Below, piece by piece: positions 3,874-35,764 of a stretch of DNA of 38,205 bases. Every line of letters starts with the position of its first letter. Positions within the stretch are counted from its first letter, which is position 1. Below the pieces are notes generated by a model. That model searched no databases and was not told the DNA's origin. It saw nothing but the letters and a program-made list of their open reading frames with translations. Source of the stretch: Candidatus Kaiserbacteria bacterium RIFCSPLOWO2_01_FULL_51_21 (GTDB lineage Bacteria > Patescibacteriota > Minisyncoccia > Phycocordibacterales > 2-01-FULL-51-21); the NCBI GenBank assembly GCA_001781435.1, contig MFLV01000023.1:11191-49395 (forward strand), read 5' to 3'. A program made the position numbers and the translations under genes.

Positions 3874-4536
3874 TTATTTCTTAGCAAACACTTCACCGCG
3901 GTAAATCCAGACCTTGACGCCAATGACGCCGTAGGGAAGATACGCTTTCTCGCGGGCAAAATCAATATCTGCGCGAAGCGTTTGCAAGGGAATGCGTCCG
4001 CGTTTCTGCTCCTCGGTACGAGACATGTCTGCTCCGCCAAGGCGCCCCGAAATGGCAATGCGGACGCCCAAAACATCGCGATTTGCCATAGTCTTTTCTA
4101 TTGTCTGCTTCAGTACCCGGCGGAACGGCATGCGTTTCTCAAGCGCTTCGGCAACCATATGACCGACAATTGCAGCATTCGATTCCGGCGAGCGCACTTC
4201 CTCAATATCGAGCCGAAACTCAGGCATCGATGCGAGTTTGAGTTTCGCGATTTCTGCTTTTATTTCCGCAGTGAGCCGTGTCGAACCTTCTCCGCTTCTG
4301 CCGATGATAAGACCGGGACGGGAAGTTTTAACAATGACGCGAAGCGTCTTCGAACTCCTTTCTATTTCCACCGTGCTTACGTACATGCCGCGCAGACGCT
4401 TGGTCAAGAAGCGGCGTATGGTGGTATCGACTTTGAGAAATTCCCGGTATTGCTTGGGGTTGCCGCTAAACCAGCGCGATTTCCAGTCGCGTAAAATGCC
4501 AAGCCGGTGTGAATAGGGGTGGACGATGTGGGTCAT
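3874..4536 (-). CDS. rpsC: 30S ribosomal protein S3
   Basis: KH motif RPGLIIGRSG; GRIPLQTLRADID; GVIGVKVWI. Confidence 0.97.
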   Translation of the reverse strand: MTHIVHPYSHRLGILRDWKSRWFSGNPKQYREFLKVDTTIRRFLTKRLRGMYVSTVEIERSSKTLRVIVKTSRPGLIIGRSGEGSTRLTAEIKAEIAKLKLASMPEFRLDIEEVRSPESNAAIVGHMVAEALEKRMPFRRVLKQTIEKTMANRDVLGVRIAISGRLGGADMSRTEEQKRGRIPLQTLRADIDFAREKAYLPYGVIGVKVWIYRGEVFAKK

Positions 4537-4550
4537 GGGATTAGGGGTAA

Positions 4551-4621
4551 GAATTACGAATTAAGAATCACGAATAAATGCATGATCCCATTCTTACTTC
4601 TTACTTCGTACTTCGTTATTC
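4551..4621. repeat. Inverted pair of heptamer arrays; the right arm lies in the rplV 3' end
   Basis: GAATTAC GAATTAA GAATCAC GAATAAA (4551-4578) faces TTACTTC TTACTTC GTACTTC GTTATTC (4594-4621). Confidence 0.8.
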
Positions 4622-5019
4622 GACCCACTTGAGCGGAGCTCAAGGGTGATGTGGCTCGTGCGCTTTCTGATGGGAGTCGCCCTCCCGCGCGCGCGAGGCA
4701 TGGATTTCTTAAAGACAAAGCCCTTATCGACGGCGATGTTTTTTATTAAAAGGTTTTCCTTTTCTAACCCACCCTGCTTTGCGTTTGCAACCGCCGCGGC
4801 AAGAAGTTTCTTTACTTGTTTTGCGGCAAGTTTATCCATATGGGTTAAAAGGATCTCCGCGCGTGACACACTTTTACCGCGAATAGCATCGGCAACGAGC
4901 CTGACTTTGCGGGGAGACTGCCGATAGTTTTTTAAAATCGCTTTCGCCCCGTTAGAGATAGGAAGCTGCGCTTCCGAGTGCTTCGTTGTTTCTTTATTTA
5001 GTTGCCTTATCTGTGCCAT
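4594..5019 (-). CDS. rplV: 50S ribosomal protein L22 with an element-derived N-terminal extension
   Basis: NYRQSPRKVRLVAD, PRARGRA, RTSHIT; the first 24 codons lie inside the 4947-5066 element. Confidence 0.95.
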   Translation of the reverse strand: MAQIRQLNKETTKHSEAQLPISNGAKAILKNYRQSPRKVRLVADAIRGKSVSRAEILLTHMDKLAAKQVKKLLAAAVANAKQGGLEKENLLIKNIAVDKGFVFKKSMPRARGRATPIRKRTSHITLELRSSGSNNEVRSKK

Positions 5020-5066
5020 ATATTTCTTTCTTTATTTAAGACAAACTTCCGTAATCTCTAACGGGA
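4947..5066. mobile_element. Palindromic mini-element A (120 bp, GTT/AAC subtype) in the rplV start
   Basis: Ends CCCCGTTAGAGAT and ATCTCTAACGGGA; flanks TTCG (4943-4946) and TTCA (5067-5070). Confidence 0.75.
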
Positions 5067-5076
5067 TTCATCAAGA

Positions 5077-5445
5077 TCATTTCTTTCCAGCCGGCGGCGC
5101 AGTTGTTCCTTCGGTGGTGGCAGCTTTTGCGGCTTGAGCGGAGGCAATCTCAGCTTGCTTTCTCTTCTCCTCAAGCTCTTTTTGCATCTTACCTCCATGT
5201 CGCAGAAATTTCTTGGTCGGAGAAAACTCGCCCAGACGATGCCCCACCATATCTTCCGTGACAAAAACGTCCACGTGTACTTTGCCGTTGTAGACGCCAA
5301 AAGTGAAACCGACCATTTCCGGCGCAATTTGACTCCGGCGCGCCCAGGTCTTAATAACCCCCGCCTTTTCAGATGGGCGTTTGCCGGCAATCTTTTTCAG
5401 CAATGTTTCGTCCACATAGGGACCTTTGATGAGGGACCGTGCCAT
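5077..5445 (-). CDS. rpsS: 30S ribosomal protein S19 with a C-terminal extension
   Basis: [30 protein letters not shown]. Confidence 0.97.
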
Positions 5446-5474
5446 AACAAAAAAGCTCTTGCGAGCGTCTGGCT

Positions 5475-5503
5475 ATACTACGAAAACAATGAGTGAAAGT
5501 CAA
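5475..5503 (-). promoter_or_regulatory. Putative internal sigma70 promoter for rpsS onward
   Basis: TTGACT-17 bp-TAGTAT; the -35 overlaps the direct repeat of element B. Confidence 0.65.
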
Positions 5504-5504
5504 A

Positions 5505-5568
5505 CCCCGTAGCGAATTTTGGCGATAGGGTTCCTGCGCTTCACGCGTCGCAAAAATCTACTACAGGG
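5505..5568 (-). mobile_element. Palindromic mini-element B (64 bp, GTAG/CTAC subtype)
   Basis: Minus strand CCCTGTAGTAGATTTTTGCGA...TCGCCAAAATTCGCTACGGGG; TTTGA repeated on both sides (5500-5504, 5569-5573). Confidence 0.8.
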
Positions 5569-5838
5569 TCAAACGAGAGCCGGCACAATCTTATTGAGAT
5601 TCTTTTTGAATTGCGTAAGCGTACCGCGAGATTTCGCATGGAGAAGTCCGCGAATCATTAGAAGTCCTTCTTCATAGGCGCTTCTGCTTTCGGACCTGCG
5701 CAGAAGCGCAAGCCCGTGATAGGCACGCCCAAGTGAATCCTGGTATTGCTGGAGATTTCCATGGTCGAGGGCAGAGATTGAGCGCACCACGTCAGCGGCA
5801 AGATTGCCGAACTGTAGTGCCGCCACAGGATCCATCAT
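5569..5838 (-). CDS. Small helical hypothetical protein coupled to the DUF5674 gene
   Basis: 89 aa ORF; ATGA overlap with the upstream stop. Confidence 0.75.
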   Translation of the reverse strand: MMDPVAALQFGNLAADVVRSISALDHGNLQQYQDSLGRAYHGLALLRRSESRSAYEEGLLMIRGLLHAKSRGTLTQFKKNLNKIVPALV

Positions 5839-6200
5839 AGGTTGAGCTCCGGTATGTGTTTCTGCACGAGCCCCCGTATGAGATTTCTAAGCAGAGGGTC
5901 CTGCAATTCCATTTCATGGTTTCCCTGCCCGGGGCGAATATTGATGAGTGAAATATATTCAAGAGCCTCCTCCCCCTCTTCCTCGGGATAGAGATTAAAC
6001 CCCCAGGTATCCTCCGGCAGAGAGCCATCCAAAATAAGATGGGCATTCGCGTCCATGTGCCAATCGCCGCCAAGCGCTACAGTGCCGCGGCGGCAATCGG
6101 CAACACCCTTGACCATGGTGCCGTGCCAGCGGCTCGCAAGATCACGAACTTCATCAAGAGAGAGCGGTTCGCGGACAATAAGAATCTCAGGATTTTCCAT
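5835..6200 (-). CDS. DUF5674 family protein
   Basis: VKGVAD...ALGGDWHMD...LDGS...WGFNLYP...SLINIRPGQGN..MELQDP, recognised from memory of the family. Confidence 0.8.
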   Translation of the reverse strand: MENPEILIVREPLSLDEVRDLASRWHGTMVKGVADCRRGTVALGGDWHMDANAHLILDGSLPEDTWGFNLYPEEEGEEALEYISLINIRPGQGNHEMELQDPLLRNLIRGLVQKHIPELNL

Positions 6201-6252
6201 ATACCAGCTATCATACCGTGCAGATACGTGCTCGAGAAGTTATGCCAATACC

Positions 6253-6286
6253 AAAACATCCCCACGCCTTGGCGTGGGGATGTTTT
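6253..6286 (-). terminator. Intrinsic terminator after rplB
   Basis: AAAACATCCCCACGCC / GGCGTGGGGATGTTTT inverted repeat directly after the stop. Confidence 0.75.
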
Positions 6287-6287
6287 T

Positions 6288-7142
6288 TTACTGAGTGGTA
6301 TTCCGTTTCTTGCCGACTTTGCGACGGGAAATAATCAAATAATTAGAATATTTTTTCGGCCGACGGCTCTTCTGCCCCTTGCCGGTTGGCTTGCCCCACA
6401 TCGAAATAGCGCGACGGCGGCCACGGCCAGAGCGTCCTTCACCGCCACCATGAGGATGGTCAACCGGGTTCATCGCGGAGCCTCGCACCGTCGGGCGAAT
6501 GCCGAGCCAGCGGGACCGTCCCGCTTTGCCGATATTGACAAGTTTCCGCTCAGGATTTGAAACCTCACCTACCGAAGCCCATGCGGTATTAAGAATCATT
6601 CGCACTTCAGTTGAAGGCATTTTTACCTGTGTGTAAGGGCTATCCTGAGCAACGATCTCTGCATAATTGCCGGCGCCGCGCGCAAGTTTTCCCCCATTCA
6701 TCGGTTTCAGTTCAATATTATAGACAAAGGTACCAACGGGAATGTTTTTCAAAGGCAGACGGTTACCGGGCACCACTTTGGCCGTTTCAGAAACGATGAA
6801 AGTGTCGCCGACCTTAAGCGAGCGCGGCAGAAGAACATAGCGCCGCTCGCCGTCTTTGTACACAACCCGGCCGATAAAGCCGCCGCGATTCGGGTCGTAC
6901 TCGATTGTTTCAATGGTTGCAGGAATGTCGTGTTTGTTGTACTGAAAATCAATCTCGCGGAAAAGCCGTTTGTGCCCGCCTCCCTTATGGCGCACCGTGA
7001 TGCGGCCAAAAGCATTGCGTCCCACAAAACGCTTGCCGCCGTGTGTCAGCGGTTTATGCGGTTCAGTTGCAGTCAAGAATTTACGATATTCAATTCCGCT
7101 CATGCCGCGCTGGCCTGGTGTTTTTGGTTTGAGGTATTTCAT
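6288..7142 (-). CDS. rplB: 50S ribosomal protein L2
   Basis: GRITVRHKGGGHK, IEYDPNR, AMNPVDHPHGGGEG. Confidence 0.98.
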   Translation of the reverse strand: MKYLKPKTPGQRGMSGIEYRKFLTATEPHKPLTHGGKRFVGRNAFGRITVRHKGGGHKRLFREIDFQYNKHDIPATIETIEYDPNRGGFIGRVVYKDGERRYVLLPRSLKVGDTFIVSETAKVVPGNRLPLKNIPVGTFVYNIELKPMNGGKLARGAGNYAEIVAQDSPYTQVKMPSTEVRMILNTAWASVGEVSNPERKLVNIGKAGRSRWLGIRPTVRGSAMNPVDHPHGGGEGRSGRGRRRAISMWGKPTGKGQKSRRPKKYSNYLIISRRKVGKKRNTTQ

Positions 7143-15892: not shown

Positions 15893-15901
15893 TTCTTATT
15901 T

Positions 15902-15950
15902 GTAATTCTTAATTCGTACTTCGTTATTCATGATTCCTGCTTCTTGATTC
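15902..15950. repeat. Heptamer array, seven units, filling the rpsL-rpsG spacer
   Basis: GTAATTC TTAATTC GTACTTC GTTATTC ATGATTC CTGCTTC TTGATTC. Confidence 0.85.
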
Positions 15951-22584: not shown

Positions 22585-22628
22585 CCAAAACTCAAACTAT
22601 GCGATATATCGCATAGTTTGAGTTTTGG
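22585..22628. repeat. Perfect 44 bp palindrome overlapping the comEC -35
   Basis: CCAAAACTCAAACTATGCGATA|TATCGCATAGTTTGAGTTTTGG; minus-strand TTGAGT-17 bp-TACTAT-7 bp-ATG. Confidence 0.9.
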
Positions 22629-24853: not shown

Positions 24854-24878
24854 CGCCAATTATTGTAACATTGCTATA

Positions 24879-25010
24879 CCCCGTAGTAGATTTTGGCATT
24901 GTCTCTTCGTTGCGACGGTTATTGTAACAGCGGACAGTGAATTTCATTTCGAGTATAGCTGGAAAGCTTTACTTAGAGACAGGGCAACTATGCCAAAATT
25001 CACTACGGGG
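24879..25010 (+). mobile_element. Palindromic mini-element D (132 bp, GTAG/CTAC subtype)
   Basis: CCCCGTAGTAGATTTTGGCAT...ATGCCAAAATTCACTACGGGG, flanked by TATA at 24875-24878 and 25011-25014. Confidence 0.85.
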
Positions 25011-25023
25011 TATACTGTCTCCC

Positions 25024-33369: not shown

Positions 33370-33430
33370 GAAGTACGAAGTACAGGAATAAAGCTCATGG
33401 CACGATCTCGTAATTCGTAATTCATAATTC
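33370..33430. repeat. Inverted heptamer arrays at the pilB-pilC junction
   Basis: GAAGTAC GAAGTAC ... GTAATTC GTAATTC ATAATTC. Confidence 0.75.
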
Positions 33431-33438
33431 GCGATTTC

Positions 33439-35190
33439 TTACTCCGAGATAACACGGAGTACTTCTTCAATCGTGGTAATACCCTGTGCCGCTTTGAAAA
33501 TACCGTCTTCAAACATCGTGAGCATTCCCTCCGTCACTGCCTGTTTTTCAATCGTATCTTCCGTGCCTCCTTTCATCACAATGTCTTTAATCGTTGGCGT
33601 CACCGGAAACACCTCATGAATACCGATACGACCGCTAAAACCATCAGGGCACTCGGGAGAAGCTTTCGCTTTATAAAAAGGAATTTTCTCCCACGTAGCT
33701 CCCCCGGGAACGATTTTCTCCTCTTTCAGCGTTGAGAGGACATGATCAAGGTTGACCGACTTGCCAAGTGAAGTAATTTCTGACTGCGAGAGACGGTATT
33801 CCTTCCGCGGAGAACAAAGCTTCCGTACCAGTCGCTGGCCGATAATCACGTTCACGGTTGAAACCAAAAGAAAAGGTTCGGAGCCCATGTCAATCATGCG
33901 CGGGATTGCGCCAGCGGCTGAATTGGTATGCAGAGTCGAGAGAACAAGATGCCCGGTGAGTGCGGCGTTAATGGCAAGCGAGACGGTTTCTTTGTCGCGA
34001 ATTTCCCCGACCATGATGATGTCGGGATCCTGTCGCATAAATGTGCGAAGTCCTGCGGCAAAGGTGAAGCCTATTTCCGGCTTCACCTGCGTTTGGTTGA
34101 CCCGAGGCATTTGATACTCGATAGGATCTTCAATTGTCGAGATATTTACTTCCGGCGTGTTCAGGATATCGAGAAGCGTATAGAGCGTTGTGGTCTTACC
34201 GGAACCGGTCGGACCGGTGGTGAGGAGCATGCCGGTTTTTTGTTTTGCGGCGCTGTGCAAGCGCTCAAGCGCCTCGCCATGAAATCCCAAACTTTCCAAG
34301 GTGAACCCTCCCGCGCTCTCTCGCAGCAACCGCATAACTACCTTTTCGCCATAGAAAACCGGCAGAAGCGAGACGCGCAAAGATACTTTTTGCCCGTGTA
34401 AATCTATTTTGAAGCGGCCGTCCTGTGGAAGCCTTTTTTCATCGAGTTTAAGATTCGCAAGAACTTTAATGCGTGCGGTGATCGAGGAAGCGGCGGTCTT
34501 TGGAAGCATCATCGCATCGTGGAGAATACCGTCAATGCGATAGCGCACGACCAATTCTTTCTCCATCGGCTCGATATGGACGTCGGAAGCATTCTGCACG
34601 ACGGCATGGGAGAGAAGTGAATCAACGATGCGCACCACCGGTAAATCCTCAGCGAGCTTTTTAAGATCACTTACCGAGGCATCGCTTCCCGGTTCGTTGG
34701 AAATAGCCTTGAGGGCCTCTGATTCGGCTTGGATAATATCGCCAAATTCGTCTTTGAGCGTTTTTTGATACTGCAGAAGTGCACTTTTAATGGAATCGGC
34801 ATCGGTAAGCCGCGGCAGAATCTTGAGCCCAACCTTTTTTTTCACGAAATCAATCGCTTCAAGGTCGCCGGTATCAAGCATTGCCACTTCAAGAGCGTCT
34901 CCAGTTTTCTTAAAAGCGAGAATGTTGTGATTGCGCGCGATGGGTTCCGGAATAAGAGAGAGTGCTTCGGGGTCAATCTTCTTCCCCTTTAAGTTAACAA
35001 AGGGAATTCCTAAGACATACGCTTGCATGCGGCGCATATCATCTTCAGTGACTACCGCTCTCTCTACCAGTACCTTACCGATGCTTACGTTGTCTTTTTC
35101 CGCCTGTTTTTCGGCATCTTCAAATTCACTCCGCGGCACCAAGCCAGAGTCGACAATGAATCCTTTGAGTTGTTTCTCGTCAATGTACAT
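33439..35190 (-). CDS. pilB: Type IV pilus assembly ATPase (PilB/GspE family)
   Basis: ASDVHIEP, RLPQDG, GPTGSGKTT, RQDPDIIMVGEIRD, TGHLVLSTLH; start ATG 35190. Confidence 0.95.
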   Translation of the reverse strand: MYIDEKQLKGFIVDSGLVPRSEFEDAEKQAEKDNVSIGKVLVERAVVTEDDMRRMQAYVLGIPFVNLKGKKIDPEALSLIPEPIARNHNILAFKKTGDALEVAMLDTGDLEAIDFVKKKVGLKILPRLTDADSIKSALLQYQKTLKDEFGDIIQAESEALKAISNEPGSDASVSDLKKLAEDLPVVRIVDSLLSHAVVQNASDVHIEPMEKELVVRYRIDGILHDAMMLPKTAASSITARIKVLANLKLDEKRLPQDGRFKIDLHGQKVSLRVSLLPVFYGEKVVMRLLRESAGGFTLESLGFHGEALERLHSAAKQKTGMLLTTGPTGSGKTTTLYTLLDILNTPEVNISTIEDPIEYQMPRVNQTQVKPEIGFTFAAGLRTFMRQDPDIIMVGEIRDKETVSLAINAALTGHLVLSTLHTNSAAGAIPRMIDMGSEPFLLVSTVNVIIGQRLVRKLCSPRKEYRLSQSEITSLGKSVNLDHVLSTLKEEKIVPGGATWEKIPFYKAKASPECPDGFSGRIGIHEVFPVTPTIKDIVMKGGTEDTIEKQAVTEGMLTMFEDGIFKAAQGITTIEEVLRVISE

Positions 35191-35680: not shown

Positions 35681-35692
35681 AATGCTTGTTGA

Positions 35693-35760
35693 CCCCGTAG
35701 TAGATTTTGGCGATGCGCCGAAGGCGCGGGCATAGCCCTTCGCCAAAATTCACTACCGGA
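35693..35760 (+). mobile_element. Palindromic mini-element E (68 bp, GTAG/CTAC subtype)
   Basis: CCCCGTAGTAGATTTTGGCGA...TCGCCAAAATTCACTACCGGA, flanked by TTGA at 35689-35692 and 35761-35764. Confidence 0.82.
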
Positions 35761-35764
35761 TTGA

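Follow-up and report, generated by a model that had tools for sequence, protein, structure and literature searches.

Here we describe the junction of the ribosomal protein genes rpsS (uS19) and rplV (uL22) in a 38,205-nt window, the whole stretch of DNA that was analysed, from Candidatus Kaiserbacteria bacterium RIFCSPLOWO2_01_FULL_51_21, a tiny groundwater organism. A short element with terminal inverted repeats (TIRs) lies there on the start codon of rplV. The host genome, GCA_001781435.1 (G000 below), is a draft of 629 kb in 28 contigs and is 92% complete. Positions are those of the window, and rpsS and rplV are read on its minus strand. An element has inserted at the ancestral rplV start, the start codon regenerated behind it has been lost, the frame running from the element into rplV is open and conserved, and related elements habitually occupy start codons. 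[quoted passage not shown] The features of the junction are listed below; L057 is a metagenome contig carrying a related locus, and P0121 is a public record of the same uL22 protein.

5077..5445, minus: rpsS (uS19) coding sequence, an open reading frame matching Pfam PF00203 (E 4.1e-32, residues 3-83), with its stop TGA at 5079-5077
5036..5071, minus: upstream open reading frame (uORF) MNPVRDYGSLS, from the ancestral rplV start ATG (5071-5069) to the stop TAA (5038-5036); L057 has the same 11 codons
5067..5070, minus: target-site duplication, upstream copy TGAA; the modal pattern in the element family is TGNN + T
4947..5066, minus: inserted MITE-like element of 120 nt when the outer bases T...G are counted (118-nt core at 4948-5065), defined by its TIRs and by empty sites in relatives
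5054..5065, minus: gene-distal TIR CCCGTTAGAGAT, one half of a 100% complementary pair
4948..4959, minus: gene-proximal TIR ATCTCTAACGGG, defined by inverted-repeat pairing and by its reading frame, in-frame I-S-N-G
5017..5019, minus: element-internal ATG, the proposed current uL22 start, in a predicted A-rich apical hairpin loop; Met in 6/6 extended proteins
4948..5019, minus: element-encoded N-terminal extension of 24 codons (MAQIRQLNKETTKHSEAQLPISNG), from the open reading frame and protein alignment
4945..4947, minus: decayed regenerated start codon, GCG here and GTG in L057, from sequence comparison
4943..4946, minus: target-site duplication, downstream copy, now CGAA; TGAA in L057
4594..5019, minus: current rplV (uL22) frame, 141 codons plus stop, with the L22 domain at residues 27-128 (Pfam PF00237, E 6.4e-34)
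4957..4959, minus: ATC codon inside the 12-bp stem, a rival start, used in the public annotation P0121 of the same protein (MSNGAKAIL...)

The ancestral ATG begins 5 nt past the rpsS stop TGA and opens a frame (ATG AAT CCC GTT AGA GAT TAC GGA AGT TTG TCT TAA) that crosses the left inverted repeat. The two 12-nt repeats, 94 nt apart, are complementary at 12/12 positions. Behind the element come GCG and then AAA GCG ATT TTA AAA AAC TAT. A preliminary description, made from the letters alone, had read an 11-codon frame running from 5071 into the element, had placed the nearest in-frame ATG at 5019, 24 codons up, and had noted that removal of 120 bp plus one 4-bp repeat gives ATG AAA GCG ATT. Each of these readings was reproduced. 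MNPVRDYGSLS ends within the element on the minus strand, and deletion of 5066-4947 together with one 4-nt repeat restores the short form. The ATG at 5019-5017 is the sole upstream ATG, GTG or TTG in the rplV frame, with an in-frame stop 5 codons before it. From this ATG the frame reads MAQIRQLNKETTKHSEAQLPISNG followed by AKAILKNY.... The uORF and the in-frame extension are the only reading frames in the element, which holds no transposase gene. With at most one mismatch allowed, the window contains the 12-mer twice, where 100 shuffles average 0.15 (one of them reached 2), and G000 contains it 33 times, against 2 matches for a reversed control.

rplV is present as a single copy in G000. Its product scores 116.7 bits against PF00237 (cut-off 28), residues 27-128 covering profile positions 1-103 of 104, and since the match begins only at residue 27, the first 24 residues of the 141-codon frame are extra. 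An extra N-terminus in a draft genome of 28 contigs, 92% complete, might reflect a sequencing or assembly error in the GCG or the insert, or an rplV that has become a pseudogene; we regard this as extremely unlikely. The junction stretch is identical in contigs assembled independently from three runs: X1 record 1 (4300-5700), X7 record 26 (4564-5379) and X10 record 10 (4940-5168) match without a difference, X1 being possibly the source sample and X7 and X10 other samples. This also disposes of the assembly artefact that the preliminary description had allowed for. Moreover, another extended uL22, P0005, independently has Ala at the old start, the rplV frame is intact with a full L22 domain, and no other rplV was found in G000.

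Related loci bear out the insertion that the preliminary description had proposed. In 29/29 uL22 loci of relatives neither the repeat nor the extension is present, and the protein starts with M plus 1-6 residues before an LKNY/LKSY-type motif and RQSPR. Four of these 29 start exactly MKAILKNYRQSPR, the product expected from G000 without the insert, and in G001, of the same genus, rplV reads TAA tc ATG CGC GCG ACT CTT. A wider search for related loci in genome contigs returned only distant uL22 loci, without the element. L057, with a uL22 core 81-83% identical to that of G000, has the same insert at the same position, with the same uORF, the same internal ATG and both inverted repeats, and its junction reads ...CTCTAACGGG GTG AAA GCG ATT. 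A perfect duplication had been expected to yield a GTG start, and this is the codon at the orthologous junction in L057; a single T>C change thus separates the GCG of G000 from a regenerated GTG start. Relatives with the extension and no inverted repeats had been named as the finding that would speak against domestication. L057, the only extended relative with readable DNA, has both.

Other members of the element family have reached the same site. Elements of other classes sit at the same ATGAA of rplV in G114 and G280, with the ATG kept, and two uL22 proteins, P0018 and P0124, have extensions ending ...SNG-M and ...SNG-V. In P0125 (MADPVR...AFPISNG-A-DATAKLSNY) the old start is read through another family element, and the junction is without Met or Val. 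The full 24-residue extension of G000 is absent from 400 sampled genomes of the order (a sample that includes one unpublished genome, G249), where the best match ends at residue 14.

An extension of the same length occurs, with 0 gaps, in five further proteins (P0002, P0003, P0123, P0004 and P0005), P0123 being the protein of L057. Identity to the G000 extension is 14-22/24 (58-92%), against 69-84% in the core. At the old start stands Ala in G000 (P0001) and in P0005, and Val in the other four of the six. Between G000 and L057, the single pair on which dN/dS (the ratio of non-synonymous to synonymous change) is based, the extension differs by 4 synonymous and 2 non-synonymous changes (dN 0.036, dS 0.32, dN/dS ~0.1); for the uL22 core dN is 0.148 and dS 1.19. 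The host family is represented by G000 and G001. The non-coding spacer from the uORF stop to the ATG at 5019 has an indel between G000 and L057, unlike the extension. Among 737 candidate proteins of 77-247 residues, queried with residues 1-40, the extension tag was found on no protein other than uL22. Domestication of the element as translation start and N-terminal extension, as first proposed in the preliminary description, is supported by six indel-free proteins, mostly synonymous change and two Ala codons at the old start.

The element is predicted to fold, as RNA, into a long hairpin in which the two repeats pair as a 12-14-bp stem that continues into GGAAG/CUUCC and an inner stem. The minimum free energy is -35.3 (z -2.2) in G000 and -44.2 (z -5.4) in L057. 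In the predicted fold the old start codon adjoins the base of the stem in G000 and enters the stem in L057, and the internal AUG at 5019 lies in a 27-nt, A-rich, unpaired apical loop. Shine-Dalgarno (SD)-like 4-mers precede 16.8% of 560 crude open reading frames in G000 and 14.7% of random positions, and the organism seems, to judge by these frequencies, to start translation without SD pairing. Given this near-absence of SD enrichment, an unpaired A-rich AUG is the kind of start that the organism would use. In the predicted protein structure the L22 fold is confident from residue 24, and the predicted local distance difference test score is below 50 for residues 1-3 and 7-19; the 24-residue tail is probably disordered.

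Such a hairpin also invites the idea, raised as a secondary alternative in the preliminary description, that the short form of uL22 comes back during expression or in some members of the population, by ribosomal bypass over the hairpin or by excision from RNA or DNA. Programmed translational bypass is known from phage T4 gene 60 and from mitochondrial 'byp' inserts, where, as at rplV, a hairpin-bearing insert lies between the start of a frame and its continuation. The old ATG is intact in G000 and L057, the element is predicted to fold into a long hairpin, and the Asn codon AAT behind the old ATG has an in-frame AAC counterpart in the right repeat. Run X13 adds a contig (record 18) from a strain ~97% identical to G000 (6 differences per 235 nt in rplV), in which 46 letters replace the 155 nt at 4943-5097. 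This is too short for the element, so element-free alleles exist; if the element were lost precisely by way of the short direct repeats, the old start would again give ATG AAA GCG.

As a route of expression, however, the restored short form finds no support, and we give it a very small chance. There is no matched pair of take-off and landing sites with a stop: no stop or hungry codon follows the take-off site, CCC comes after AAT, and the first stop is 9 codons further on. The gap of ~117 nt is more than twice the classical T4 gene 60 gap, and no Rfam family, ribozyme or intron matches the element. No joint that removes the element is seen in the X1, X7 and X10 contigs, although contigs drop rare variants, and the X13 contig represents another strain, not a variant of G000. 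Bypass or excision would also leave the conservation of the extension as a peptide unexplained. What stands of this alternative is the element-free allele in the strain of X13.

The rplV element belongs to a dispersed family. Its ends are found paired in 24 copies in G000, 50-194 nt long, with interiors that fall into a few unrelated classes; together with 37 copies drawn from six further genomes in the order, these make up the 61 copies examined. Among 40 relatives, matches to the termini number 16-45 in each of six genomes and 8 in a seventh, with 0-1 in reversed controls; the same-genus relative G001 has 0. Immediately behind the element stands ATG in 53 of the 61 copies; the others have GTG (2), ATT (2), GTA (2), GTT (1) and GCG (1, at rplV in G000). 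An old ATG stands directly before the element in 51/61 copies, and the base preceding CCCG is T in 55/61. The pattern TGNN + T is common to both flanks in 29/57 copies; 7 more are compatible with it, 7 have 3 nt + T and the rest are irregular. The anatomy given in the preliminary description thus extends to the family, as a 4-nt duplication around an element whose outer bases are T...A. In two copies an old TTG (L076) or GTG (C23:8245) start stands beside a new ATG start, which shows directly that the last base of the element, with the duplicated TG, rebuilds the start codon. A 2-nt 'AT' target duplication, also considered, was ruled out: at empty sites ATGAAAGC is present once, and not ATGAATGAAAGC.

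Copies of one class, as far as they were looked at, all turn the same end to the gene. Eight of 9 downstream open reading frames tested match Pfam housekeeping families from profile positions 2-6, among them FtsW/RodA, MurA-type EPSP synthase, the MurB-type FAD domain, glycosyl transferase 4, methionine aminopeptidase, adenylate kinase and penicillin-binding protein, with L35 just below the cut-off. In G000, 20/24 copies are on a start codon. The rplV insert shares with MITEs its short length without a transposase gene, its TIRs, its target duplication, and its dispersed copies and empty sites. The element is thus MITE-like, and unusual in occupying start codons. An autonomous partner with the same ends was not found: 12 regions of G015, G010 and G029 whose ends looked unpaired, a small sample, all proved to be ~105-nt elements. 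Rfam covariance models, run over 4400-6400, gave no match on 4943-5071 at E<=1, and a promoter and terminator scan of 4400-5600 stayed at chance level, with nothing inside the element on the gene strand.

In the reading that we favour, insertion of the element would have duplicated TGNN of the target, here TGAA, and the element's last base plus the duplicated TG would have rebuilt a start directly behind it, mostly ATG in the family and GTG in the rplV subfamily. The old ATG would have stayed upstream, opening a short uORF. The ATG at 5019, by chance in frame with rplV and with no stop behind it, would have taken over as start and added a 24-residue N-terminal tail to uL22. With this ATG in use the GTG would have become dispensable, and would have decayed, to GCG in G000 and, in one or more other lineages, to a codon for Ala. 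Ribosomes that finish rpsS might resume at the old ATG, 5 nt further on, translate the 11-codon uORF across the left hairpin arm, terminate at TAA 5038-5036, and initiate anew after 17 nt at AUG 5019, exposed in the 27-nt loop. That ribosomes use this AUG, and that they are coupled to it through the uORF, we infer from the arrangement and conservation of the frames.

Several points weigh against this account. The step from an open, conserved frame to a start in use at ATG 5019 is itself inferred from sequence. The dN/dS value reflects 6 changes against one sequence, and the binomial P of ~0.02 for at least 4/6 synonymous changes with 21% synonymous sites (a hand calculation) is optimistic, as all 4 synonymous changes are transitions. 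The extended proteins are known through the open frames of gene callers, and lineages with a closed frame would escape. The uORF stop comes right before the new start, ending 4 nt from it, in only 12/51 copies, with old-to-new frames evenly spread at 20/16/15, so uORF coupling is not a built-in feature of the family; a built-in coupling via the TAA in the right repeat, tried as a candidate, was ruled out on these same counts. The element is patchily distributed among close relatives, being absent from the ~97%-identical X13 strain and present in the distant L057. Finally, the public annotation P0121 starts at ATC 4959, and P0006, a close relative with an 84%-identical core, was called from MLKNY.

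The two annotations lead directly to a second view of the same frame, in which uL22 starts at a near-cognate codon, either ATC 4959-4957 (MSNGAKAIL) or ATT 4938-4936 (MLKNY), and the frame upstream is an untranslated leader. P0121 (sources NCBI and UniRef), the same protein annotated from MSNGAK, is a record of the first of these starts; the P0006 call suggests that somewhere the protein can begin three residues further in; and both ATC and ATT are start codons of translation table 11. We hold this view unlikely. The ATC lies inside the 12-bp stem, and its Ile codon is missing in P0005 (PPTSNGA) and in P0004 (PSTPSEV), P0005 having no Val or Met at the old start either. Were the upstream frame an untranslated leader, one would not expect six sequences to retain 24 codons without indels or stops, their changes being mostly synonymous or conservative. 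In bacteria that have been studied, AUC and AUU are weak and seldom-used starts, which speaks against them for a highly expressed essential gene.

The age of the element is a further difficulty. The extension is 91.7% identical to that of L057, against 82.0% for rpsS and 75.6% for the rplV core; the part from the old ATG to the spacer has 2 changes and 1 indel in 52 nt, and synonymous divergence is ~4 times lower in the extension than in the core. This excess likeness may fit a combined constraint on RNA structure, initiation region and peptide, or a younger age through transfer or re-insertion, and a younger age would weaken the argument from long co-evolution. Pressed further, it could mean that the G000 and L057 lineages gained near-identical elements independently and recently at the same hot spot, so that uL22 would still start at ATG 5019 and the extension would be a young accident. 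Consistent with such gains, the element is ~92-96% identical between G000 and L057 while its flanks are 76-82%, other classes of the family have struck the rplV start as well (G114, G280, P0018, P0124 and P0125), and the element is missing in the X13 strain. Against them stands the internal 87 nt of the element, of which there is no second copy in G000 or in the 400 sampled genomes; with no master copy in sight, repeated insertion from one is disfavoured. Divergence of the extension in P0002, P0004 and P0005 also scales roughly with that of the core, and the tag is confined to uL22 among the 737 candidates. We therefore rate two recent gains as quite improbable, and favour one insertion followed by domestication at ATG 5019.

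The habit of the family raises a broader proposal, which we advance tentatively and rate at slightly less than an even chance: that bacteria of the candidate phyla radiation (CPR) type harbour an element family whose insertion machinery is aimed at start codons and whose members act as portable 5' leaders on essential genes. Such elements would integrate at (A)TGNN of first codons, rebuild the start from the terminal base and the duplicated TG, and be tolerated because their hosts start translation without SD pairing; their targets would include murein-synthesis genes, ATP synthase and ribosomal proteins. A rough count of our own, ~650 start codons against several thousand intergenic TGNN sites, argues for real targeting over survival bias. 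Within this same tentative proposal the rplV copies would be the end point, the host start codon having been lost in at least two separate insertions (the G000 clade and P0125), and a universal ribosomal protein would now take its initiation from transposon sequence.

Further observations concern the family and other repeats. The start of rpmI (L35) carries a family element in two genomes, G000 (C23:2505-2691) and G010 (L077), and the G000 copy also has an open in-frame ATG within the element, 29 codons upstream. Genes starting MYINK... are likewise targeted repeatedly (L082, L110). A second hairpin or inverted-repeat family, with ends like ACCCCGTAGTAGATTTTGGC that resemble the CCCGT ends of the rplV element, is seen at 5503-5572, 24875-25014 and 35689-35762; a copy of this type just upstream of rpsS overlaps the only promoter-like match (TTGACT-17-TAGTAT, 5503-5475), which is at chance level. 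A third small family, with ends CCCGTGAGATA...TATCTCACGGG, lies outside the window (C4:738, C8:10681, C10:3714, C11:8201 and C26:3872); some of its copies are flanked by TATAC or GTATAC-like repeats, and it is not at start codons. At 22585-22628 the window contains a perfect 44-nt palindrome, 22+22 nt without a spacer.

Around the junction, uS19 has a Lys/Ala/Glu-rich C-terminal tail of ~35 residues past its Pfam domain (5080-5199, minus), seen also in G001 and L057. An inverted pair of a heptad-like repeat (GAAGTAA or GAATTAC type) lies between rplV and rpsC at 4548-4621 and encodes the last residues of uL22 (…NNEVRSKK) and its stop, with related copies at 15896-15943 and 33408-33444; the C-terminal tail of uL22, which recurs in P0002 and P0003, may thus be repeat-derived too. 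Between rplB and rpsS, on the minus strand, lies a gene for a 121-aa DUF5674 protein (5835-6200, Pfam E 1.5e-24) and, overlapping it, an 89-aa frame without a Pfam match (5569-5838, minus). These two extra frames at 5569-6200 are an unusual break in an S10-type operon.

Host proteins that receive sequence or a start from a repeat are known, and the rplV element can be set beside several described systems. With bacterial MITEs the family shares its size (50-275 nt), the want of a transposase gene, the TIRs, short duplications of the target, a high copy number per genome, sites that are filled in some relatives and empty in others, and a long RNA hairpin. It departs from them in sitting on start codons (53/61 copies adjoin ATG), in one orientation to the gene, with a last base that rebuilds the start; a partner insertion sequence with the same ends was not found in the 12 regions examined.

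Ogata et al. 2000 reportedly described Rickettsia palindromic elements (RPE) inserted in frame into protein genes. In the parts of PMC3184786 and PMC10969869 that were available, RPE appear as palindromic repeats in frame inside protein genes, and in-frame fusions of small repeats with host genes are described for RPE, ERIC, BOX and the Anabaena MITEs. At rplV, likewise, a palindromic mobile repeat appears to have ended up in frame with an essential protein without destroying it, the frame here being open and conserved. RPE, however, sit inside coding regions and encode a family-wide peptide, whereas the rplV family shares only the repeat-encoded S-N-G. Most copies of the rplV family are not translated into the host protein, and the rplV copy supplies an initiation codon. 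The host lineage, of the CPR type, is unrelated; the two families are set apart here by description, their sequences not having been compared.

Neisseria REP2 is described with a promoter, a ribosome-binding site (RBS) and an ATG in the same available parts of PMC3184786 and PMC10969869, and is alike in that a dispersed repeat gives host genes a translation start. REP2 brings an RBS and a promoter, whereas in G000 there is no sign of SD use and no promoter-like site above chance. The rplV start, moreover, already existed, was duplicated and then lost, and the gene is that of a universal ribosomal protein. Mycobacterial interspersed repetitive units (MIRU) are described, in the available part of PMC3184786, as intercistronic repeats with small open reading frames overlapping the flanking genes and with tetranucleotide direct repeats. 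They resemble the rplV element in lying between operon genes with 4-nt duplications, a small frame bridging the gap. MIRU consist of tandem-repeat units, lack strong terminal inverted repeats and show no tie to start codons, and in the rplV family coupling is only occasional (12/51). From programmed bypass the rplV case differs in lacking matched take-off and landing sites with a stop, in its much longer gap, and in an insert frame that is conserved as a peptide.

Our full-text literature search, with most subscription journals and supplements outside its reach, found no start-codon-anchored repeat family that rebuilds the codon, no description of MITEs for Patescibacteria, and no universal ribosomal protein with its own start so replaced. 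The start-codon-anchored family is, in our view, more novel than the rplV case itself. Were its start preference a property of the insertion machinery, it would be a target choice that we did not find described for bacterial transposons in the literature searched.

At the rplV locus an essential ribosomal protein, conserved universally, has in all probability handed its initiation codon to a selfish element, a clear case from nature, and the intermediate state, with the GTG still present, is preserved in L057. The element explains why public annotations disagree on the start of one gene (141 aa against 121 aa), and a tryptic peptide, HSEAQLPISNGAK, spans element and gene and allows a direct metaproteomic test. 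In genomes that lack a Shine-Dalgarno signal, and whose starts are therefore hard to predict, the repeat family points to the true start codons. If its start preference does lie in the insertion machinery, the family would also bear on how the ribosomes of ultra-small bacteria find starts beside strong hairpins.

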